NCBI GenBank assembly: GCA_942492995.1
Contig: OW818653.1
Location: 210,001 to 242,000, forward strand
Direction of reading: 5' to 3'
Length of the DNA: 32,000 nucleotides
Source of the DNA: an uncultured Erysipelotrichaceae bacterium
Lineage (GTDB): Bacteria > Bacillota_I > Bacilli_A > Erysipelotrichales > Erysipelotrichaceae
In this document: positions 4,171 through 18,640 of the stretch, piece after piece
Layout: each line of letters begins with the position of its first letter
Numbering within the stretch: position 1 is the first letter of the stretch
Notes under the pieces: generated by a model
What the model saw: the letters and a program-made list of their open reading frames with translations, nothing else
What the model was told of the DNA's origin: nothing
Database searches by the model: none
Position numbers and translations under genes: made by a program

Positions 4171-5226
4171 CTATTTTCTTCGAATCTGATTAAATACCTC
4201 TGCACTTTCTTCATCGATGTTTTTTAAAGCATGTGCATATACACGAGCAGTTACATCTACACTAGAATGTCCTAATCGTTTAGAAACTTTTATAAGAGGT
4301 ATATTTGCATCTAATAATAAAGAACCATTAGAGTGTCTGAATTCATGTAATGTGTATTCACGAAGTTTGGCTTTCTTTAAACCATCTTTCAACTTCCTAA
4401 CTATAGTTGATGTTGATAGTGGTTCATGTCCACCGAAAACAAATGGACCATCTTGGTTTATTAAAGGTACTAGATTCTCAAATAGTTCATCATCGAGTTT
4501 TAAGATTCTATAGCTCTTTGGAGTTTTTAAACTTGAGAGACCACGTCGACTACCTACTTGTCTATGTGGGATACTTTTATTAATTGATACAGTTCTATTT
4601 TTTAAATCTATATCTTCTTTTTGTATAGCTAAAGCTTCAGATCTTCGCACACCTGTAAAGTAACAAAATTCAAAGAATGTTTTATATACCTGGTTATCTA
4701 TTTCCTTAATAAAAATATCAAACTCATCATAATTCATTACATGCTTTTCTTTTTGTTCATCAAAAGGTTTTACGAAGGATTGCAATCCTTTAGCATTATC
4801 GGGAATATCATAATTTAAATATCCAAACTTCATAATTGCCTTGATTAGCTTGATTATAGAGTTTTTCGTTGTAGACGATAAATTAGTCGTTGCTATTTGA
4901 TTTCTCCAATTTATCCATGTTTTTGATTGAATTGGAAGGGGATTATCGAAGTGATTACCAACATACTTTTTGAGTTTATTGAATTGGTCTCTGATTGTAG
5001 CTTCATTCGCAATACCAACTCTTGTGTTAAAATATAAACTGCTTATTTCTCCAAATGAAAACTTTAGATTGTATGATGTGTCAAACTTTACCGATTTCTC
5101 CCAAGATTCAGCTGCTTTTTTAGTTAGAAATCCTCGTTTCTTATGTGATTTTATTTCTCCATTATTATCACGGAATCGAAGATCAACATACCATGTTTTA
5201 CGAACACTATCTTTATATATTGCCAT
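4171..5226 (-). CDS. int: Tyrosine-type site-specific integrase
   Basis: C-terminal catalytic pattern: GVRRSE (Arg I), HEFRHS (H-x-x-R), GHSSVDVTARVYAH (His/Tyr). N-terminal arm-binding-like MAIYKDSVRKTWYVDLRF. SD AAAGGAGG. Sits at the prophage edge. Confidence 0.92.
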   Translation of the reverse strand: MAIYKDSVRKTWYVDLRFRDNNGEIKSHKKRGFLTKKAAESWEKSVKFDTSYNLKFSFGEISSLYFNTRVGIANEATIRDQFNKLKKYVGNHFDNPLPIQSKTWINWRNQIATTNLSSTTKNSIIKLIKAIMKFGYLNYDIPDNAKGLQSFVKPFDEQKEKHVMNYDEFDIFIKEIDNQVYKTFFEFCYFTGVRRSEALAIQKEDIDLKNRTVSINKSIPHRQVGSRRGLSSLKTPKSYRILKLDDELFENLVPLINQDGPFVFGGHEPLSTSTIVRKLKDGLKKAKLREYTLHEFRHSNGSLLLDANIPLIKVSKRLGHSSVDVTARVYAHALKNIDEESAEVFNQIRRK

Positions 5227-5326: not shown

Positions 5327-6391
5327 TTAATAAATAAATTTAGCACTATTTTTAATATATTCGATACATACTTCCAAGTCATAATAATCACTATCTATAC
5401 TTATAATCTTTTCATATTTGAATTTAACAATTATTTCAGATGTTGTCTTATGTTGTTTTAATTCTTGTATATCATAGTACTCAATATCAATTAGAAATTT
5501 TATAACATTCTTTTCAAAAAACTTATAGTTTATATCTAAATAGAATTCTGAATTGTAACGTCCAGGAAGAATTTTACAATTTATATCTTGTAAGTTGATA
5601 TTTTCAAGATAATCATTAATTAATACTTGTGAAGGCTTATTAAAGCCGAAGTGGTGCTGCCAATACTTATAAACTTCGAACTTACTGAAAGATATGTTTT
5701 TTGCATGGTGTTCAGAAGTATTTAGGATTTCAAAGAAAACCGGGAAATTATATATCACCTCATTATCTTCTTCTTTTAAAAGATCACCAACTCCAAGTTT
5801 CTCATTAGACTTTTGAGATTTACTCTTTTTAATATTAGTTTCGATGTCAGAATGTTTTATATTGCTTTTCTTAGCAATTTCTGGAATTTGAACAATAACT
5901 ATTGGTATTGTTTGATATGCGAATTGATTCTTCAATTCTTGAGATTCTTCAATCCTAATATTCTTCTCATGTTTTATTGTGAATATTAGAGCTGTCATAG
6001 TAATAATACCGCCAAGTAGTGAACCTATAAATGAAAGCCACCCATCTGCTGTTCCTATCTTTACACCTTCAATATTCGATAATTGTCTACCTAACGATAG
6101 AATTCCGTAAGTTGCTGGAAACGAAAGAGTAACAAATATTGTTGAATAAATTAAAATGTTTCTATTTAAGTTATCATTGCTTTTTCCTATCCATAAAAAA
6201 TAAAGATAAATAGCTATGGATGCATTATAAGATATTTGTACACTAATAATGATAAAAAATTCTAATGGATGAGTTAATGATGTTACGTTTATATTTAATA
6301 AAGCGATAGATCCATAAATCAAATATATTGTTAGAATAATTTTGCTAATTATACCAAAGTTGATTTTAATGAAGTTTACTAATTTATTCAT
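5327..6391 (-). CDS. Membrane protein of unknown function (4 N-terminal TM helices plus a soluble C-terminal domain of about 200 aa); lysogeny-operon cargo
   Basis: ATG at 6391 with GGTGA 7 nt upstream. Same strand as the repressor, ImmA and int genes and lying between them. No recognisable motif. Confidence 0.75.
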   Translation of the reverse strand: MNKLVNFIKINFGIISKIILTIYLIYGSIALLNINVTSLTHPLEFFIIISVQISYNASIAIYLYFLWIGKSNDNLNRNILIYSTIFVTLSFPATYGILSLGRQLSNIEGVKIGTADGWLSFIGSLLGGIITMTALIFTIKHEKNIRIEESQELKNQFAYQTIPIVIVQIPEIAKKSNIKHSDIETNIKKSKSQKSNEKLGVGDLLKEEDNEVIYNFPVFFEILNTSEHHAKNISFSKFEVYKYWQHHFGFNKPSQVLINDYLENINLQDINCKILPGRYNSEFYLDINYKFFEKNVIKFLIDIEYYDIQELKQHKTTSEIIVKFKYEKIISIDSDYYDLEVCIEYIKNSAKFIY

Positions 6392-6465: not shown

Positions 6466-6777
6466 TTATGCGGTAATACCTAACAAATTGAAATGCAGAT
6501 TATAATCTTCAATTATTTTATGAACTTCTATTTCACACTTAGCTATATACACAGGTTCGCAGCTAAAGTGATTTTTCATGATGTGGATTATTTCGTGTAT
6601 CGTTGTTGTTTTTAATTGGAAGCCATTGAATCGATTGTTTAGAAATACATGGAATTCTTCACCATCATAATAACAAAAGCCTTTTATTGTAGATCCAAGA
6701 TTCTTTTTAATTTTAATAATAATTCCATGCTGAATACAAAACTCATTGAAATCCCCAACATCAAATTCCCCCATCAT
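6466..6777 (-). CDS. ImmA/IrrE-type zinc metallopeptidase (short form, 103 aa)
   Basis: HExxH motif HEIIH. Starts 6 nt downstream of the XRE repressor stop, the classic ImmR/ImmA arrangement. Confidence 0.75.
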   Translation of the reverse strand: MMGEFDVGDFNEFCIQHGIIIKIKKNLGSTIKGFCYYDGEEFHVFLNNRFNGFQLKTTTIHEIIHIMKNHFSCEPVYIAKCEIEVHKIIEDYNLHFNLLGITA

Positions 6778-6783
6778 AAGTAG

Positions 6784-7215
6784 TTAGTCTATGCCTCTTT
6801 CCTTTCGTATACCTTTAATAATTGTTAAGACCATTTCAAGGTCTTGTGGTGTTAGATCCTTTGCAGAATCGAATAATAACTGAAGTGTTTCACTTTCGTA
6901 TATCTGTTGATAAAGTTCAAGTAATTCGGGTTTATCAGAGAAATAGTCTAGATTGTCTTTGTGATTGCCATAAATATCAGATTTTTCTTCAACTCCAAAG
7001 TAACCTATCTCATCTGTAAATCCAGCTAACCAAGATTCACTAACATTTAAATATTCGGCTATTAATGATATTTTATCGTTTTTTGCTATTTGCTTTTCAT
7101 TCAAATATTGAGAAATAAGTGCTTGACTTAATCCTGTAGACGAAGCAAGATCAACTGGTTTCTTATAAGCTCTATTAAGTGCAAATTGAAGTCTTTCTGA
7201 GAAATTATATTTCAT
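6784..7215 (-). CDS. XRE-family HTH repressor (CI/ImmR-like)
   Basis: HTH_XRE sequence FSERLQFALNRAYKKPVDLASSTGLSQALISQYLNEK. I prefer the ATG at 7215 (SD GGGAG 8 nt upstream). The track start at 7236 touches the predicted -10 box and would lie upstream of the transcription start. Confidence 0.85.
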   Translation of the reverse strand: MKYNFSERLQFALNRAYKKPVDLASSTGLSQALISQYLNEKQIAKNDKISLIAEYLNVSESWLAGFTDEIGYFGVEEKSDIYGNHKDNLDYFSDKPELLELYQQIYESETLQLLFDSAKDLTPQDLEMVLTIIKGIRKERGID

Positions 7216-7236
7216 TTTCTTACTCCCTATAATCAT

Positions 7237-8408: not shown

Positions 8409-8829
8409 TTATATTTTTGATTTTTGGAACAAGAGAATTTAATTTAGTAGCAGAATTTACTCTCCCATCTATTCCCCTCATTATACTGAAATTTAAATCT
8501 TGTACTTCTTTAGCTAAACTATCATCTAATCTAATTAATACTAAAGGATAGAACTTACCATAGTTGGTTAAATTCTCTGCAGAAAGATGCCAGATGAGTG
8601 AACTACATGAAGATAAATAATCGTAATAAAGTTGTTTCTCTTTTATGACATTAGCCTCGTATTCTGACATTTCTCTCTCATAAGCTCTTATAACATTGTG
8701 CTCTGCATATTCAGCTTTACGAATTTTGAAATTATAAATATTGTTTATGATTGCGACAAATATTGGTGAAAATATAGCGGCTAAAGCAATTATAACTGTA
8801 AAAGTTAAAGTAGCATCGATTTCTGGCAT
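8392..8829 (-). CDS. Hypothetical membrane-anchored protein (145 aa, one N-terminal TM helix)
   Basis: ATG at 8829 with SD GAGGGAAA. N-terminal segment TLTFTVIIALAAIFSPIFVAII. Confidence 0.7.
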   Translation of the reverse strand: MPEIDATLTFTVIIALAAIFSPIFVAIINNIYNFKIRKAEYAEHNVIRAYEREMSEYEANVIKEKQLYYDYLSSCSSLIWHLSAENLTNYGKFYPLVLIRLDDSLAKEVQDLNFSIMRGIDGRVNSATKLNSLVPKIKNIIKVIK

Positions 8830-8853
8830 AAGTTTCCCTCACTGATTATTTAA

Positions 8854-8884
8854 ATCATAACAAAGAAAGGCAATTAATAAAATG
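8854..8884 (+). repeat. Conserved leader copy B (ATCATAACAAAGAAAGGCAATtaaTAAAATG)
   Basis: See copy A. Confidence 0.9.
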
Positions 8885-9115
8885 AAGAAAGTAAGTGAAA
8901 GTGTATTACCAATTAAAGTTGAGGTTTCAATAGAAATTAATATTATCGGTTCTGAAGAAAAAAAAGAAAACATCACTACTGAGAATAGTGATGTTAAAGA
9001 ATCGTTTCATGAATTAAAGAAAAATATAGAAACAAAAATTACTAATGGAATTATTTCTATATCTGAAGCAAGAAATCTATTTAATGAAAAATATCCTGGT
9101 ACTTTCTCAAAATAA
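8882..9115 (+). CDS. Hypothetical acidic 77-aa protein
   Basis: ATG preceded by leader copy B. 3' end overlaps the convergent gene 9107..9409 by 9 nt. Confidence 0.6.
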   Translation: MKKVSESVLPIKVEVSIEINIIGSEEKKENITTENSDVKESFHELKKNIETKITNGIISISEARNLFNEKYPGTFSK

Positions 9116-9409
9116 CTTAATGCCATACATGCTTATTTTAGGATTTTTAAAATGACTATCTTCAACCAAAATGTATTCGTTAAATTTCATGTTTAATTCT
9201 CTGCAAATATCTGGAATTGATTCTAGATAAGAATCTTGAGGTAATCCTAATTTATAAAATAATTCATTTGAATATACAGTATTTGTTTTATCACCAAGAA
9301 TCAACATCCCATGTTTCTTCATTAATTCCATTATAGATTCTTCAGTGTTCGGAGTTTGAATTGCATCATCTCGTAATTCAATAAGTTTATTAATTATAGT
9401 TTGTCTCAT
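9107..9409 (-). CDS. Hypothetical 100-aa protein, paralog of 7901..8203
   Basis: ATG at 9409 with strong SD GGAGGGGGTGA. Paralogy as described for 7901..8203. Confidence 0.75.
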   Translation of the reverse strand: MRQTIINKLIELRDDAIQTPNTEESIMELMKKHGMLILGDKTNTVYSNELFYKLGLPQDSYLESIPDICRELNMKFNEYILVEDSHFKNPKISMYGIKLF

Positions 9410-11213: not shown

Positions 11214-12032
11214 ATGAATCGAAAACAATTAAAGGATGAGTTATCCGTTTTCGTCGACCAATTAAGGAATGATGAAAAGGCAAAAAATACAGTTCACGCT
11301 TACAAAAGAAACAATGAAATGTTCATTGATTCGATTAAACACGATAATCCAATCACTAAAGAAGATGTAATTTCATTCAAAGAAAAGATATCTGCAGAAG
11401 GTTATAGATCATCTTCATTGAATCAAATCGTTATATCAGTAAATAAGTATCTTCGATGGTTAAAACTCGAAAAAATGGTAGTTAAGAAATTTAAAACGCA
11501 GACTAAGAGTAGTTTGGAAACAGTCTTATCCAATAAAGATTTTGCACGGTTACAACGCTATGCAAAAGTTATGGGCTATGAAGACATTTACCTGGTATTA
11601 GATGTCCTAGTAACAACTGGAATACGTATCAGTGAGTTAACATTCTTCACTGTTGAGAATCTCAAATCATTCTATATAGAGGTCAATAACAAAGGGAAGA
11701 TGGGTGACATCATACTCACTCAACAACTGAAACGAAGATTAGTTAATTACGCAAAAAATAAACGAATAAAGTGCGGTCCAATCTTTGAACTAAATGATCG
11801 TCAAATACGATATCGATTAAAGAAAATAGCAGGACGAGCTAGAGTAAATAAAGCGATTGTATATCCACATAATATTCGACATTTATTTGCACTTAACTGG
11901 ATTGATGGTGGAGGTAGTTTAGCTGATTTAAAAGACATTTTAAGGCATTTGGACATAAAAACAACCGCGATTTATTTGCAAACTAGCAAAGAGAATAAAC
12001 GTAAAAAATTAGAAAATATGAGGGTTAGGTAA
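11214..12032 (+). CDS. Second tyrosine recombinase (XerC/D-like, 272 aa)
   Basis: N-terminal SAM-like core-binding region (NTVHAYKRNNEMF). Catalytic TGIRISE (Arg), HNIRHLF (H-x-x-R), LRHLDIKTTAIYL (His/Tyr). Confidence 0.85.
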   Translation: MNRKQLKDELSVFVDQLRNDEKAKNTVHAYKRNNEMFIDSIKHDNPITKEDVISFKEKISAEGYRSSSLNQIVISVNKYLRWLKLEKMVVKKFKTQTKSSLETVLSNKDFARLQRYAKVMGYEDIYLVLDVLVTTGIRISELTFFTVENLKSFYIEVNNKGKMGDIILTQQLKRRLVNYAKNKRIKCGPIFELNDRQIRYRLKKIAGRARVNKAIVYPHNIRHLFALNWIDGGGSLADLKDILRHLDIKTTAIYLQTSKENKRKKLENMRVR

Positions 12033-12341: not shown

Positions 12342-13676
12342 ATGAATCAACTTAACATATTCGAGTTAACGAATCAGAGATTTTATTTTAAATATGATGA
12401 AAAAATTAAGATATTTGAAGCTTTTTCTGGAATTGGTTGTCAGAGAATGGCTATGGAGAGATTAGGCATTGAGTTTGAATCAATTGGAATAAGTGAAATT
12501 GATAAACATGCAATAAAATCATACCAAGCAATCCATGGTGAAGTTAAAAATTGGGGTAATATCTGTGATATTAAAGGTGATAATTTAGCGCAAATAGATA
12601 TATTTACATACTCATTTCCATGCACTGATTTGAGTAAAGCAGGAAAACAGAAAGGTTTGAATAAAACAAGAAGCGGTTTGGTTTATGAGGTTTTAAGGAT
12701 ACTTCAAGAACTTAAAATTGAAGGCAGGCTACCGAAAGTATTAATCATGGAAAATGTCATTGATTTAATTCAAATTAAATTCGTAAGAGAATTTCAAATT
12801 ATTCAACTTGAATTAGAAAGATTAGGTTATTCAAACTATACGGAAACTCTGAATGCAAAAGATTTTGGAATTGCTCAAAACAGAGATAGGGTATTTATGG
12901 TTTCAATTCTTGGAAATTATTATTATGAATTCCCAAAACCGATAAAACTAGAAAATAGATTGAAAGATTATTTAGAGACTAATGTTGATTCGAAATATTA
13001 CCTTAGCAGTGAGCTTATTTCAAGAATTGGTAAGTGGAAGTCTCAACAAAATCCAATCGAAAACTCCAAAACAAATGAAGATATTTATATTCAATGTATT
13101 ACTGCTAAAGGGAATACAACTGATAATGCATCCATGTTATTGATACGTGAAAAGACTGTAAAAGGATATACAGAAGCGTTCGAAGGAGATGGAGTTTATA
13201 TTAATCGTCCTCATCAGAAACGAGGAGTAGTTCAAAATGGGAAGATTCAAACCCTCAAAACAAGTTGTTCATATGTAGGAGTAGTTGTTCCAATCGAATT
13301 AAGATCAGACGAAGGCATCAGGTATTTCAAAGATAACTTAATTGGGACTCTTAGAACTAAGGATTCCTGCGGGGATAAGATGATTATTTTTGATGATTAT
13401 AACTCATCAATAAGAGAAGATCAAAACACCATTGGTACACTTACAACAAATTGTGGGAGTAGTTCTGAACGGAATGGATATAAATTAATAGAAAATGGTT
13501 TAAGAATTCGTAAACTTACACCACTTGAATGTTGGAGATTAATGGGAATAGATGATCAATATTACTTTAAATCTAGTCAGGTTTGTTCTAGTACACAACT
13601 TTACAAACAAGCAGGTAATGGAATAGTTGTTAATGTATTTCAAGAAATATTAAGACAACTGATGGAGACAAAATGA
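12342..13676 (+). CDS. Orphan DNA (cytosine-5)-methyltransferase with an unusually long variable region
   Basis: Motif I FEAFSGIG, IV SFPCTDLS, VI ENV, VIII QNRDRVF, IX LTPLECWRLMG, X GNGIVVNV. About 200 aa lie between motifs VIII and IX. No adjacent endonuclease gene. Confidence 0.92.
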   Translation: MNQLNIFELTNQRFYFKYDEKIKIFEAFSGIGCQRMAMERLGIEFESIGISEIDKHAIKSYQAIHGEVKNWGNICDIKGDNLAQIDIFTYSFPCTDLSKAGKQKGLNKTRSGLVYEVLRILQELKIEGRLPKVLIMENVIDLIQIKFVREFQIIQLELERLGYSNYTETLNAKDFGIAQNRDRVFMVSILGNYYYEFPKPIKLENRLKDYLETNVDSKYYLSSELISRIGKWKSQQNPIENSKTNEDIYIQCITAKGNTTDNASMLLIREKTVKGYTEAFEGDGVYINRPHQKRGVVQNGKIQTLKTSCSYVGVVVPIELRSDEGIRYFKDNLIGTLRTKDSCGDKMIIFDDYNSSIREDQNTIGTLTTNCGSSSERNGYKLIENGLRIRKLTPLECWRLMGIDDQYYFKSSQVCSSTQLYKQAGNGIVVNVFQEILRQLMETK

Positions 13677-15410: not shown

Positions 15411-15639
15411 TCAAGTAATTGTGTTAAGACCGAATGGATTAAGAGAAGAAATAGATCTATGCGATATTTGTACAACCATCCAACCTCATGTTGGAGTTAT
15501 GAAACATTCAGATAGAAGTAAAAAAGCGTTTATAGATACAATTCTTGTTACAAAAAGACATATGTTTACTCTTGAAGGAATCGAGATGTTAAAAGAAATC
15601 AGTGCGCAATTAGATGTGCCTGAGGTGAATCATGGCTGA
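15403..15639 (+). CDS. Hypothetical protein (78 aa)
   Basis: The ATG at 15403 overlaps the upstream stop. The track start at 15337 is a TTG deep inside the previous gene. Confidence 0.55.
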   Translation: MRDQVIVLRPNGLREEIDLCDICTTIQPHVGVMKHSDRSKKAFIDTILVTKRHMFTLEGIEMLKEISAQLDVPEVNHG

Positions 15640-16411
15640 TGTGAAGTGGATCAAGATTGTAACCGATATCTTTGATGATGATAAAATTCGATACATTGAA
15701 TCAACTCCAAATGGTGATGAAACCATTGTTATTTGGTTCAAACTACTTTGTCTAGCTGGAAAGACAACAACGTCTGGATTACTTATGATGACTGATCGTA
15801 TTGCGTATACCGATGAAATGTTAGCTAGTGTATTCAATCGTAAACATAAATCAGTAATGTTAGCTTTAAATTTGTTTGAAGAACTAGAAATGATAGAACG
15901 CTTTGATAATAAAATTTTAATTGCGAATTGGAATAAACATCAAACACTAGATAAAATTGAAACAAAGAAAATTAAAGATCGCGAATATCAAAAAAATAGA
16001 AGAAACGAATTAAAAAAATCGTACGACAATCGTACGACAATCGGTGAACAAATTAGCGATAGTCGTTCACTAGAAGAAGAAGTAGATAAAGAATTAGAAA
16101 AAGATACTTTTAAAGATAAAGATTTAAGGTATATAGAAGATTTAAATGATGATCCAATTCCTCCAAGTGAAACGTATGATGAGATGTTAGGTCTAATTGA
16201 AAATGAATTTAAAAGAATTTTATCATCTTCTGAAATTAATAAATTTAATGATTTATTTTCCAAACATGGTTTCAAGAAAATTAAATATGCATTATTCGAA
16301 TCTGTGCTGTATCGAAAACTAAGTTTAGCTTACATGGAAACATGTTTGAACACTTGGGACAAGAAAGGATATACTGTTGAGCAATTAGGCCATGGTATAC
16401 ATAAGGTTTGA
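15632..16411 (+). CDS. Phage replisome organizer (N-terminal organizer domain plus DnaD-like C-terminal domain)
   Basis: MADVKWIKIVTDIFDDDKIRYIE...VIWFKLLCLAGK matches the replisome-organizer N-terminal pattern. C-terminus IENEFKRILSSSEINKFNDL...WDKKGY is DnaD-like. SD GAGGTG. Confidence 0.85.
   Translation: MADVKWIKIVTDIFDDDKIRYIESTPNGDETIVIWFKLLCLAGKTTTSGLLMMTDRIAYTDEMLASVFNRKHKSVMLALNLFEELEMIERFDNKILIANWNKHQTLDKIETKKIKDREYQKNRRNELKKSYDNRTTIGEQISDSRSLEEEVDKELEKDTFKDKDLRYIEDLNDDPIPPSETYDEMLGLIENEFKRILSSSEINKFNDLFSKHGFKKIKYALFESVLYRKLSLAYMETCLNTWDKKGYTVEQLGHGIHKV
16019..16043. repeat. Tandem 11-bp direct repeat TCGTACGACAA x2 (plus TCG) inside the organizer gene; ori-like
   Basis: Read directly. 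Followed by the inverted repeat GTGAAC/GTTCAC (16044-16070) and a purine/AT-rich tract. Confidence 0.7.
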
Positions 16412-16412
16412 A

Positions 16413-16829
16413 ATGATCAAGACAGATATAAAAGATGCTTTGATTAATTATCATCAGTTAAAAGTTGCAATTAAAATAGACAATCAAAATATAATTGCTA
16501 TTCGATGTTTAAAAAATAAAATTGGTGGATCAATAGCAACAATTCCACAAAATCCAATAGCTCGAGACAAAGTAATTATTAACAACATGGATAAGGAAGA
16601 TTTCTATTTATTAGAACTTGCTAATCATGAATATAAATTATTTATTGTTAATAAGTTCATTGATGAGTGTTCAGTTTTTCCAGTTGATATTAAGCAGTTT
16701 ATAATTGACTTATTTATTCAGAATATGCAAATGAGTGATGTTGCTGATAAACATAACTATGCAAAATCTTTCATATATAAAAAAATAGATGACGAAATAG
16801 AATTGTTTGTAAATAGAATGAATCAATAA
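16413..16829 (+). CDS. Putative late-gene regulator (ArpU/RinA/sigma-region-4-like)
   Basis: About 138 aa, positioned between the replication and packaging modules. C-terminal HTH-like MSDVADKHNYAKSFIYKKIDDEIELF. Family assigned by pattern and position only. Confidence 0.45.
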   Translation: MIKTDIKDALINYHQLKVAIKIDNQNIIAIRCLKNKIGGSIATIPQNPIARDKVIINNMDKEDFYLLELANHEYKLFIVNKFIDECSVFPVDIKQFIIDLFIQNMQMSDVADKHNYAKSFIYKKIDDEIELFVNRMNQ

Positions 16830-16853
16830 GTTTTTAAATTAATCATTCAAATT

Positions 16854-16862
16854 TGATATAAT
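16854..16862 (+). promoter_or_regulatory. Extended -10 promoter TGATATAAT for the moron cassette
   Basis: Exact TGnTATAAT match, 22 nt upstream of the ATG at 16885. Confidence 0.6.
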
Positions 16863-16884
16863 CTCTTTAATGAGGTGTGGGGGA

Positions 16885-17700
16885 ATGATTAATATAACGT
16901 TTAGTGCTTATCAAATGATTGTTGATAATAAATTGCCTAATAAAAAATTCTTTAGTGATTTAAGGAATGAAATAGACTCTCATAGCGGTAGAAATTCAAT
17001 GAAATCTCCAAATGGAGATATTCATGCTTATGTTAAAAAGGATCTTCTTTTTGAAAACGATTATTTCTATCTAAATTTTAAGATTGGTTCAAATGGCAAT
17101 TATGAACCATTTGTAATAGATACGGTTAACGATAATACGCAAAAGCCAAATCCAAAAAAATCAGAAGAAATTGAACCTAATGAAGAATCATATATATTCT
17201 ATGATTTCAAAAAAGAAATAATCTATATTTCCTCTTCTAGTAAGTCTGCATTTGAGAAATTATTACATTTTTATTTTTTGGACAAAATTATTGTTATTAA
17301 AAAACTATTTAAATCATATGATGAATTTATTAAAGGATTAAGAGAATTAGTTGAAATAAGACTGACTACATATGACAATAATGTATTTGCAAACGTAAGC
17401 GGATATACAGGGTTAATGAAAGATATTTATGGGTTTGACGATCCAGATTCTTTTGAACTAAAAGCATTATTTAATAAAAAAGTTCTAAAAGAAAAAGATT
17501 TTAATTTATTAAATAAGATTAAACAAAGGTTTGATGAACATGAGTTTGAGAAGTTTGTAGTTGTTGGAAATGATGTGGATGAAATTGAAAGAAGATTTAG
17601 TGCAGATAGATTCCAAGAAAAGTTTCAAATAGAGGTAAAAGATGAAGGCAAAAACAGAGAAATCATTATCAATGAGATTTTACGAAAGATTAGAAAATGA
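16885..17700 (+). CDS. Moron gene A: soluble 271-aa protein of unknown function
   Basis: SD GAGGTG 7 nt before the ATG at 16885. The track start at 16870 has no SD and abuts the -10 box. No catalytic motif recognised. Confidence 0.75.
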   Translation: MINITFSAYQMIVDNKLPNKKFFSDLRNEIDSHSGRNSMKSPNGDIHAYVKKDLLFENDYFYLNFKIGSNGNYEPFVIDTVNDNTQKPNPKKSEEIEPNEESYIFYDFKKEIIYISSSSKSAFEKLLHFYFLDKIIVIKKLFKSYDEFIKGLRELVEIRLTTYDNNVFANVSGYTGLMKDIYGFDDPDSFELKALFNKKVLKEKDFNLLNKIKQRFDEHEFEKFVVVGNDVDEIERRFSADRFQEKFQIEVKDEGKNREIIINEILRKIRK

Positions 17701-18163
17701 TTATTTATTTATAATTATCGTTATTTTAACAATGGCTATTAATGTATTTGGAATTAAAGTAGTAATTAGTAATGAAATTGTAGGTGTATCTATTACAATG
17801 TTTTCAATAATTTATGGATTCTTGGTTTCTTCTGTTTGTAATCTTTTTGGCAGAAAGATTACAAGTGCAATGAGCAAAAGTGTTGTTGGTAATCAAACAA
17901 CAGAACTTAGAATGTTTAGGAAATCACTAATAAAATTTGTATTCAAAGGAGTAATATTCATTCTTATATCAATTATGATATATATCTTGAGGTTATATAC
18001 TCTTCCAGAGGATATAAAATCAAGTATATATGTAACATATATTGAACTCGGTGTTAGCGGGTATTATGTATCACAATTGATTTACATAGCGTTTTCTATG
18101 TACTATTTCTTTATTGTTCTAGTAAACATGTTAGTAAATGAAGAATATCTAAATGGTAATTAG
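17642..18163 (+). CDS. Moron gene B: polytopic membrane protein (about 4 TM helices, 173 aa)
   Basis: SD GAGGT 5 nt before the ATG at 17642. Overlaps gene A by 59 nt out of frame (an alternative ATG is at 17672). Hydrophobic segments LFIIIVILTMAINVFGIKVVI, VGVSITMFSIIYGFLVSSV, GVIFILISIMIYILRLY and YYVSQLIYIAFSMYYFFIVLV. Confidence 0.7.
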   Translation: MKAKTEKSLSMRFYERLENDYLFIIIVILTMAINVFGIKVVISNEIVGVSITMFSIIYGFLVSSVCNLFGRKITSAMSKSVVGNQTTELRMFRKSLIKFVFKGVIFILISIMIYILRLYTLPEDIKSSIYVTYIELGVSGYYVSQLIYIAFSMYYFFIVLVNMLVNEEYLNGN

Positions 18164-18217
18164 AAATATGGCAAATTTATAAAGTGTGGACACGTCCACT
18201 AAATTTAAAGTGTATTA

Positions 18218-18226
18218 TGATATTAT
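18218..18226 (+). promoter_or_regulatory. Candidate extended -10 promoter TGATATTAT upstream of the late operon
   Basis: TGnTATTAT, preceded by the direct repeats TATAAAGTGT and TTTAAAGTGT (18177-18214). Confidence 0.35.
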
Positions 18227-18260
18227 AGAATAACTAGGAGATAGTAACTCCAGTTATTAG

Positions 18261-18284
18261 AAGAGACTTTGCGTCTCTTTTTTT
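18261..18284 (+). terminator. Rho-independent terminator
   Basis: AAGAGAC / GTCTCTT 7-bp stem, 5-nt loop and a T7 run. Lies 98 nt after gene B and 15 nt before the HNH ATG. Confidence 0.8.
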
Positions 18285-18298
18285 ATTGGTAAGAGTAA

Positions 18299-18640
18299 AT
18301 GAAAAGAACACTACAAGAGCTTATCGATATAATCCGTGGACCTAATCCAAATAAGTTCTATAAAACAATTGAGTGGCAAGAAATTAGAGTGGATGCACTC
18401 AAACGCGATCACTACAACTGTAAGCGTTGTTCTGGTGAATGGGATTCATCGTTCGACATTAAAAGAGTTACATACAAAGATGCCAAGTATGTGCATCATA
18501 TTAAATCATTGAAGGATTATCCGAATCTATGTATTGATCTTAACAATCTAGTGTCATTATGCTTCATGTGTCATGAGGTTGTTGAAGAAAGAAATAAAAA
18601 ATATGAGCATAAAGTACCACTAACAATTGAAAGATGGTAA
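18299..18640 (+). CDS. HNH endonuclease (packaging-associated)
   Basis: CKRCSGE...HHIKSL...NLVSLCFMCHEVVEE (H-N-H plus CxxC pairs). Sits immediately upstream of terS, as in cos/HNH phages. Confidence 0.88.
   Translation: MKRTLQELIDIIRGPNPNKFYKTIEWQEIRVDALKRDHYNCKRCSGEWDSSFDIKRVTYKDAKYVHHIKSLKDYPNLCIDLNNLVSLCFMCHEVVEERNKKYEHKVPLTIERW

Follow-up and report, generated by a model that had tools for sequence, protein, structure and literature searches.

We analyzed a window of 32,000 nucleotides (nt) from the genome of an uncultured Erysipelotrichaceae bacterium (contig OW818653.1, positions 210,001 to 242,000), and focused on a prophage-borne cassette in which a gene for a soluble protein (hereafter gene A) is followed by a gene for a small membrane protein (gene B). 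An initial annotation, made from the letters of the sequence, had described this block as a self-contained moron (i.e., accessory phage cargo) and as a candidate defense/abortive-infection pair. The elements that it listed, namely a promoter motif, both open reading frames (ORFs), both Shine-Dalgarno (SD) sequences, a hairpin, and the flanking genes, were all found where it had placed them. The features of the cassette and of its right border, in coordinates of the window, are the following:

About 16830-18175, plus strand: cassette proper, comprising gene A and gene B with the left spacer
16830..16884, plus strand: left-junction spacer of 55 nt, cassette-specific, starting directly after the stop codon of the upstream regulator and without counterpart in related phages
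16833..16862, plus strand: promoter-like site TTTAAA-18 nt-TGaTATAAT (extended -10), 22 nt 5' of the gene A ATG
16873..16878, plus strand: SD GAGGTG of gene A, read from the sequence, 7 nt before the ATG
16885..17700, plus strand: gene A, 271 amino acids (aa), soluble, proposed sensor/activator with a predicted RexA/RdgC fold (from the ORF, the homologue family, and an AlphaFold2 model searched with Foldseek)
17632..17636, plus strand: SD GAGGT of gene B, within the coding sequence of gene A, 5 nt ahead of the gene B ATG
17642..18163, plus strand: gene B, 173 aa, four transmembrane (TM) helices, proposed membrane effector (from the ORF, hydropathy, an AlphaFold2 model, and homologous partners)
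18185..18198, plus strand: hairpin GTGGACACGTCCAC, part of the phage backbone and approximate right end of the cassette, aligning with hairpins of the related phages L013 and L014
18259..18284, plus strand: intrinsic terminator-like hairpin (18259-18281) with a T-run, a backbone feature that would end the cassette transcript

The products of gene A and gene B are identical to proteins called by NCBI (P0001 and P0002, respectively). Their ORFs overlap by 59 nt, out of frame, each with an SD of its own, which bears out the gene arrangement originally described. To see the pair in a wider sample, we assembled 10 lineages, consisting of the window and nine further independent loci. In 10/10 of these lineages, gene A is directly followed by a homologous membrane partner, always in the order A then B. 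The partner ORFs, one of which had escaped the gene caller, are 144-178 aa long and display 3-4 strong hydrophobic peaks, and at the A/B junction the two genes overlap by up to 65 nt or are up to 4 nt apart (-65 to +4 nt). The ten B proteins are joined into one family by significant pairwise BLAST matches and have a conserved motif after TM2, on the cytoplasmic side, which reads NLFGR in the sub-clade of the window. The closest relative is L001, with 40% identity for A and 47% for B, and it keeps both the long A/B overlap and the internal SD GAGGTAAA. Since each gene is kept at 40-47% identity in an independent locus and is part of a wider family, we take A and B to be real genes. Similarly, because the overlap and GAGGTAAA are retained in L001, the start of gene B at 17642 and its translational coupling to gene A are supported, in line with the coupled expression suggested earlier. 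The pair co-evolves, always adjacent and always A then B. In 9/10 loci, a spacer of 55-216 nt precedes gene A, and in most of the other loci, A+B stands out from its flanks by a higher AT content (in L020, a GC content of 25% versus 49%). Gene B is immediately followed by a strong terminator in the other phage-borne copies, while the copies embedded in restriction-modification (R-M) operons look operonic.

Two further observations concern the module in other genomes. A gene B homologue with 50% identity is found in L002 (74-508), with its N terminus cut by a stop codon, no A upstream, and a terminator after it; this copy looks like what is left of a decayed module. In addition, conserved unannotated genes follow the pair directly in L022 (3310-4290, 326 aa) and in L005-L007 (in L005, 9423-10253 and 10415-11509, 276 and 364 aa). 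These genes have no PADLOC match, and a third component is conceivable in some sub-clades.

As for sequence relationships, neither A nor B matches Pfam, PHROGs, NCBIfam, or PADLOC (2023 models), and a word-indexed protein search with A returned only A itself. The impression that A is an orphan is nevertheless wrong, since an exhaustive HMMER search identified 227 gene A cluster representatives at E<=1e-3, with 62 passing the stricter cutoff of <=1e-10, the clusters being defined at 50% identity. Nearly all are full length (257-284 aa, with a median of 267 aa). The view that neither protein has a recognizable family holds at the level of sequence and no further; A belongs to a family of ~227 representatives with a predicted RexA/RdgC fold. 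When 101 aligned members of this family were scanned against Pfam and PADLOC, the result was scattered single noise matches with no family in common, and the family profile found no match among PDB sequences. Nor was there any match in 50,697 deposited phages, either by megablast of the region or by tblastn of A, B, and three further diverse A members; two such members gave no match in plasmids either. Searches for related loci were likewise negative on viral contigs with single A proteins and on genome and viral contigs with the gene B motif. Within the alignment of 101 sequences, there is a clear signature composed of N89 (100/101), P90, R/K91 (99%), E97 (100/101), F103, K139 (at the domain boundary), G183, invariant G228, and D230. 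The elements N89-P-[R/K]91 ... E97 ... F103, K139, and G228-x-D230 of this signature could mark a sensing or signaling site.

We modeled gene A with AlphaFold2 using the 101-sequence alignment, which gave a confident model with a predicted local distance difference test score (pLDDT) of 87.7 and a predicted template modeling score (pTM) of 0.73. A structural search of this kind had been proposed in the initial annotation, and Foldseek run on gene A ranked lambda RexA (8TWQ) first among solved structures, with a probability of 1.00 and an E value of 8.2e-4, over the whole length of the protein (307 aligned columns). The second rank was taken by RdgC of Escherichia coli (2OWL, probability of 0.99), and ranks 3 and 5-7 by kinetochore CENP-L/N proteins (E values from 1e-3 to 1.2e-2). 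These three groups of matches are mutually consistent because RexA, RdgC, and IML3 and CHL4, the yeast counterparts of CENP-L/N, have been reported to have a common fold (PMC11077077). The gene A model is composed of a β-rich block (residues 2-140), a part with four helices and four main strands (145-239), and a terminal helix (258-270). The order of these elements agrees with the published topology of RexA, i.e., a split globular domain, a four-strand/four-helix dimerization domain, and a C-terminal helix (PMC11077077). On this model, gene A is predicted to have the RexA/RdgC fold, and the cassette is an architectural match to RexA/RexB. In a viral structure library, the best matches to A are uncharacterized phage proteins, followed by RdgC-annotated ones. 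One uncultured phage represented in that search, Myoviridae sp. ctgr818 (BFVD A0A8S5PCY0 and A0A8S5PEF7), matches gene A and, weakly, gene B: it provides the third-best structural match to A (292 aa, E value of 2e-10), together with a match to gene B (156 aa) that is not significant. This phage may carry a structurally similar pair.

To place the cassette in the prophage, we considered the genes on either side of it:

15632-16411: replisome organizer, upstream flank
16392-16829: phrog_36 transcriptional regulator, directly upstream flank
18299-18640: HNH gene, downstream flank, followed by terS and terL

The annotation of the phrog_36 regulator and of HNH/terS/terL agrees with the insertion point that had been named, between a regulator and HNH/terS. 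A search of viral contigs with terL recovered five relatives of the prophage. Regulator, HNH, terS, terL, and portal genes occur in the same order in L014 (terL 97%), L013 (82%), and L015 (67%), and tblastn detected no trace of A or B in these three phages. DNA homology with L014 and L013 stops, as determined by blastn, at 16829, exactly where the stop codon of the regulator ends, and returns from about 18180 in the alignment (18277 by BLAST). As can be seen in the junction alignment, the regulator of the relatives runs straight into a different ORF. The slot holds four small ORFs (158, 82, 96, and 66 aa) in L014 (7953-9238), two ORFs (86 and 60 aa) in L013 (8387-8935), and about 5.5 kb of DNA including ORFs of 508 and 378 aa in L015 (3650-9200). 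Moreover, the kilobase with the cassette has a GC content of 25.3%, the lowest in the window (about 31%). Since the closest relatives keep the flanks without A/B and have other cargo in the slot, A+B is accessory (moron) cargo in a variable slot, as had been claimed. The comparison of synteny that had been suggested thus reveals a pair that is not conserved in all related phages.

The same alignments show what does not belong to the cassette. The terminator has an equivalent in L014 (9223-9242), upstream of HNH; the terminator, the 18185-18198 hairpin, and the intervening promoter-like stretch also occur, at the corresponding position, in related phages devoid of A and B. Consequently, both hairpins are phage backbone. 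The intrinsic terminator that had been attributed to the cassette exists, with its hairpin and T-run, but it is not the cassette's own. This backbone block lies upstream of HNH in all related phages (18180-18284 in the window, 9160-9250 in L014, 8870-8950 in L013, and 1-70 in L012), and its elements follow each other in the order short hairpin (GTGGACACGTCCAC in the window), promoter-like stretch, and intrinsic terminator. The stem sequence of the terminator varies among the phages, while the T-tail and the downstream sequence are common to them. The block looks like the place where the early and late operons meet and like the right-hand border of a cargo hotspot.

The module is by no means restricted to this slot, and of the family members that we examined, most are situated in R-M operons of bacterial chromosomes rather than in phages. 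The neighborhoods are as follows:

Window and L016: prophage, with a small gene upstream and HNH/terS/terL downstream
L009: surrounded by small genes lacking annotation, with a distant homologue of the window's regulator upstream
L005-L007: directly after hsdR-hsdM-hsdS
L004: preceded by hsdS and a DUF4365 gene
L018/L019: hsdM and a nucleotidyltransferase pair on one side, hsdS-AbiJ-hsdR on the other (AbiJ, E value of 1e-19)
L020/L021: between hsdR and hsdS, followed by HEC-01 (E value of 5e-173) and hsdM; the genome has lpx genes and is Gram-negative
L001: convergent with AriA/AriB (PARIS)

The L016 prophage is unrelated to that of the window and carries the pair in the same slot, just upstream of HNH/terS/terL. 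Integrases, resolvases, or insertion sequence (IS) elements, including IS21, are found near several of the loci. This pattern is that of a mobile defense module. It supports the proposal of a defense/abortive-infection candidate, together with the pairing in 10/10 lineages and the predicted RexA/RdgC fold, since the pair recurs in or beside type I R-M, PARIS, AbiJ, and HEC-01. Two of the chromosomal loci merit description. In L018 (2070-11021; L019 has the same arrangement), the stretch from hsdM to hsdR of a type I R-M operon contains three passengers, namely a nucleotidyltransferase/nucleotidyltransferase-substrate-binding pair, A+B, and an AbiJ-like (Abi_C) gene. In L020 (5124-13860), lpxD/A/I/B are upstream, and both A+B and HEC-01 (AAA_15 plus DUF4276) lie between hsdR and hsdM; gene B of this locus (8782-9234) had been overlooked by the gene caller.

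These contexts also bear on a different explanation, according to which the main role of the pair is element stabilization. A+B would then be a toxin-antitoxin (TA) or addiction pair in which the toxin B is held by A, or else a reversed Rex system, in which A is the effector and is sequestered at the membrane by B; defense would be a by-product or would come about via release of A. For the reversed variant there is a precedent in mycobacteriophage Butters, whose RexA-like protein is the effector and is sequestered by its membrane partner (PMC12894663). Strict co-inheritance, fixed order, and overlapping frames are all typical of TA pairs, and the integrases, resolvases, and IS21 point to mobile contexts. 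However, A, with its 271 aa and predicted DNA-clamp-type fold, is unlike typical small antitoxins, and the repeated embedding in R-M operons and beside PARIS, AbiJ, and HEC-01 points to defense. We therefore consider stabilization as the main role to be unlikely, bearing in mind that it is compatible with defense and that the two are not mutually exclusive.

As for gene B, hydropathy reveals four hydrophobic segments (about 22-38, 46-62, 100-116, and 149-165), and its AlphaFold2 model, although of low confidence, consists of four long helices, both of which agree with the four or so TM helices noted at the outset. The loop between TM2 and TM3 is rich in lysine and arginine, and both termini are predicted by the positive-inside rule to be cytoplasmic. 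Family-library scans of 11 members of the B family yielded isolated matches at noise level and none to Pfam RexB. Small polytopic membrane proteins of prophages are often superinfection-exclusion (Sie) proteins or holins. The cassette, which lies near the start of the late region, could on these grounds be a membrane exclusion or lysis-timing device, with B as a holin-like protein or injection blocker and A as its regulator, and without abortive infection. This is very improbable in our view. The lysis module is elsewhere and the genes that follow the cassette are structural; neither holins nor Sie proteins need a partner of 270 aa with a RexA fold, the chromosomal copies embedded in R-M operons make a role in lysis unlikely, and neither A nor B has a PHROG holin or Sie match.

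On the basis of predicted fold, pairing, and defense neighborhoods, the overall interpretation of the initial annotation is supported and can be sharpened to the RexAB type. We lean toward the view that a temperate Bacillota-type phage here carries A+B as an accessory RexAB-type phage-exclusion (abortive infection) system, one that represents a sequence family without an earlier name. From these data we infer the anti-phage function, DNA binding and dimerization by A, activation of B by A, the effect of B on the membrane, and expression in the lysogen from 16833-16862. By analogy with lambda RexAB, RexABpp of Pseudomonas putida, and Sucellos of Vibrio cholerae, A would be a cytoplasmic, probably dimeric, non-specific DNA-binding sensor, which would detect a replication/recombination intermediate, a DNA-protein intermediate, or a protein of the infecting phage. 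B would be made in a fixed ratio to A via the overlapping, probably translationally coupled frames; the A:B ratio is critical for lambda Rex and for RexABpp (PMC12894663). Once activated by A, B would compromise the membrane by depolarization or leakage, the cell would be arrested, and the superinfecting phage would be aborted, which would protect the lysogen population. The lysogen is thus predicted to be protected against some heterologous phages.

Several observations weigh against this interpretation. First, the global template modeling score (TM-score) of the gene A model to 8TWQ is just 0.39, for which inter-domain hinge motion is a plausible reason, and hhalign of the A-family profile with lambda RexA gave a probability of 0.3, in what was a weak test because the template was a single sequence. 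The gene B model, from a three-sequence alignment, is weak (pLDDT of 62), and the fold search that used it gave no significant match. Comparison of gene B with lambda RexB was negative by blastp and by hhalign (probability of 0.2), again a weak test with a single-sequence template. The likeness of gene B to RexB is therefore architectural only, lying in its size and four TM helices, a common architecture. Second, the genomic context comes from 10 lineages only and is not a statistical survey. Third, the promoter-like site is formed by TGATATAAT at 16854-16862 and a weak -35 (TTTAAA) 18 nt upstream, with 10/12 matches and the TG present, but the extended -10 TGNTATAAT is not statistically distinctive, with four copies in the window versus 4.6 expected by chance. 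Nor does the region have an excess of promoter-like sites (38 versus 45.5 expected). Since the motif is no more frequent than expected by chance, it is position that makes the promoter plausible: the right strand, 22 nt 5' of the ATG, in the cassette-specific spacer. Of the promoter as originally described, the location of the motif stands, whereas the promoter itself is unproven. Fourth, about 9.6 kb separate the cassette from the repressor; it comes last in the early region, and no terminator sets it off from the genes that precede it. Because of this, lytic growth rather than lysogeny may be the main time of its expression, with transcription reading through from the early operon. If so, it might keep out competing phages once the prophage is induced, or contribute to the development of the phage itself.

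The last of these options can be put in more specific terms, A being an RdgC/RexA-like modulator of recombination, of replication, or of the lysis-lysogeny switch, B a membrane tether or modulator, and both being expressed early. A precedent exists in lambda, where RexA acts independently of RexB in the bistable switch and biases it to lytic growth (PMC11077077). The location after the replication module and the regulator is in keeping with such a role, as are RdgC as second-best structural match and the RdgC-annotated proteins among the viral matches. Nevertheless, phages that are near-identical lack the cassette, and most of the family members examined are chromosomal, inside R-M operons. 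Moreover, an obligatory four-TM partner is foreign to RdgC, whose Pfam family was matched by none of the 101 members scanned. A phage-serving role is accordingly rather improbable, and we next compared the cassette, as a candidate RexAB-type exclusion system, with systems already known.

Like lambda RexA/RexB, the cassette is prophage-encoded, with the soluble gene first and the membrane gene second, and the sizes are of the same order (271 + 173 aa versus 279 + 144 aa in lambda). RexA is the best solved-structure match of A, with the same domain order, and B is predicted to have four TM helices like RexB. In contrast, neither protein has detectable sequence similarity to its lambda counterpart, the genes overlap by 59 nt, many members are chromosomal in R-M operons, and the host is of Bacillota type rather than E. 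coli. The cassette is also located 9.6 kb from the repressor, at the regulator/terminase junction, and not in the immunity region. However, while Rex genes are near a CI-like repressor in lambda, CarolAnn, and P. putida P1, this location is not universal, as shown by Sbash and Butters. The cassette hence lacks sequence membership in the RexA, RexB, and RdgC families, and is RexAB-type by predicted fold and by architecture.

RexABpp, from P. putida prophage P1 (PP_5643/PP_5644; PMC12894663), is likewise a two-gene prophage system for which BLAST is uninformative. It was assigned to the RexAB type by HHpred, by the RexA-like predicted structure, and by its four-TM partner, and was shown to defend (PMC12894663). 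Overexpression of its RexA results in RexB-dependent growth arrest and membrane damage, and both genes are needed (PMC12894663). PP_5643 is detectable by HHpred against RexA (98%), whereas the A family is not, by hhalign against a single RexA sequence. RexABpp is also near a CI-like repressor, and it is set apart here by description. The second system of this kind is Sucellos (SclA/SclB), a cassette of the Vibrio cholerae superintegron, in which both genes are required, SclB is a predicted pore, and defense was shown (bioRxiv 10.1101/2024.07.02.601686). Sucellos, too, is RexAB-like by structure and not by BLAST or Pfam, and is often found in prophages. Its blastp homologues are in Pseudomonadota (Vibrio and Salmonella prophages), whereas the A family is AT-rich and includes Bacillota-type prophages. 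Indirect evidence, i.e., the published description and the lack of matches in deposited phages and plasmids, speaks against blastp-level identity of our family with Sucellos; should the two be shown to be the same, the system would already be known. Finally, the Rex-like pairs of actinobacteriophages (Sbash gp30/gp31, CarolAnn gp44/gp43, and Butters gp30/gp31), which we compared by description, resemble the cassette in having a prophage-encoded soluble RexA-like protein with a membrane partner, heterotypic exclusion, and a variable position relative to the repressor. They differ from it by longer RexA-like proteins (337-372 aa), by hosts that are Actinobacteria, and, in Butters, by reversed roles.

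RdgC (2OWL/2OWY), the second-best structural match of A, belongs to the RexA fold superfamily. It is the product of a stand-alone housekeeping gene, about 300 aa long and equipped with an additional tip domain, whereas A has 271 aa and always occurs with a four-TM partner. The RexAB of staphylococci and streptococci is a name collision only, as it is an AddAB-type helicase-nuclease unrelated to Rex. Kiwa is a two-gene defense system that pairs the four-TM protein KwaA with the soluble, DNA-interacting protein KwaB (DUF4868), the membrane gene being first. We rejected it as an identification because A, B, and the scanned family members had no PADLOC or Pfam match to it (DUF4868, Kwa), and because no Kiwa structure was among the top PDB matches.

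The concept of RexAB-type systems unrelated in sequence is not new, since RexABpp (2026) and Sucellos (2024) were accepted on structure and validated; what is new here is the sequence family and its contexts. With at least 227 clusters at 50% identity, this large family of pairs, sequence-unrelated to RexAB, has about an even chance of being a widespread defense class that combines a RexA-fold sensor with a four-TM effector. It is an equally balanced question whether such a class is carried by Bacillota prophages as morons and, in Gram-positive and Gram-negative bacteria alike, by type I R-M operons as embedded cargo. Among abortive-infection systems, Rex was the earliest to be described. If the class is real, the combination of a RexA fold with four TM helices reaches beyond the few cases known from lambda, actinophages, and pseudomonads, and new tractable models would be available for what Rex systems sense. 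A distinct, sizeable family of this fold and architecture would mean that such a design is common and not confined to one phylum. It would also add to the 2023 PADLOC models that we used, and its conserved residues and natural diversity could be set against lambda to find the essentials of the mechanism.

The window as a whole is a prophage that carries an integrase, a helix-turn-helix (HTH) repressor, a Bro/ANT antirepressor, a second tyrosine recombinase, and a C5 cytosine methyltransferase. The closest named terminase to that of the window is from Erysipelothrix phage SE-1 (47%), a match that fits a Bacillota host. Two of these genes are located as follows:

4171-5226, minus strand: integrase
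6784-7236, minus strand: HTH repressor

Between these two genes are a 354-aa ORF (5327-6391) and a 103-aa ORF (6466-6777), both on the minus strand and both without Pfam or PADLOC match. They are in a classical moron position and could be a second accessory or defense candidate. The early region of the prophage also contains the second, XerC-like tyrosine recombinase (11214-12032) and the C5 cytosine DNA methyltransferase (12342-13676; Pfam E value of 5e-68), the latter being probably an orphan anti-restriction methylase.

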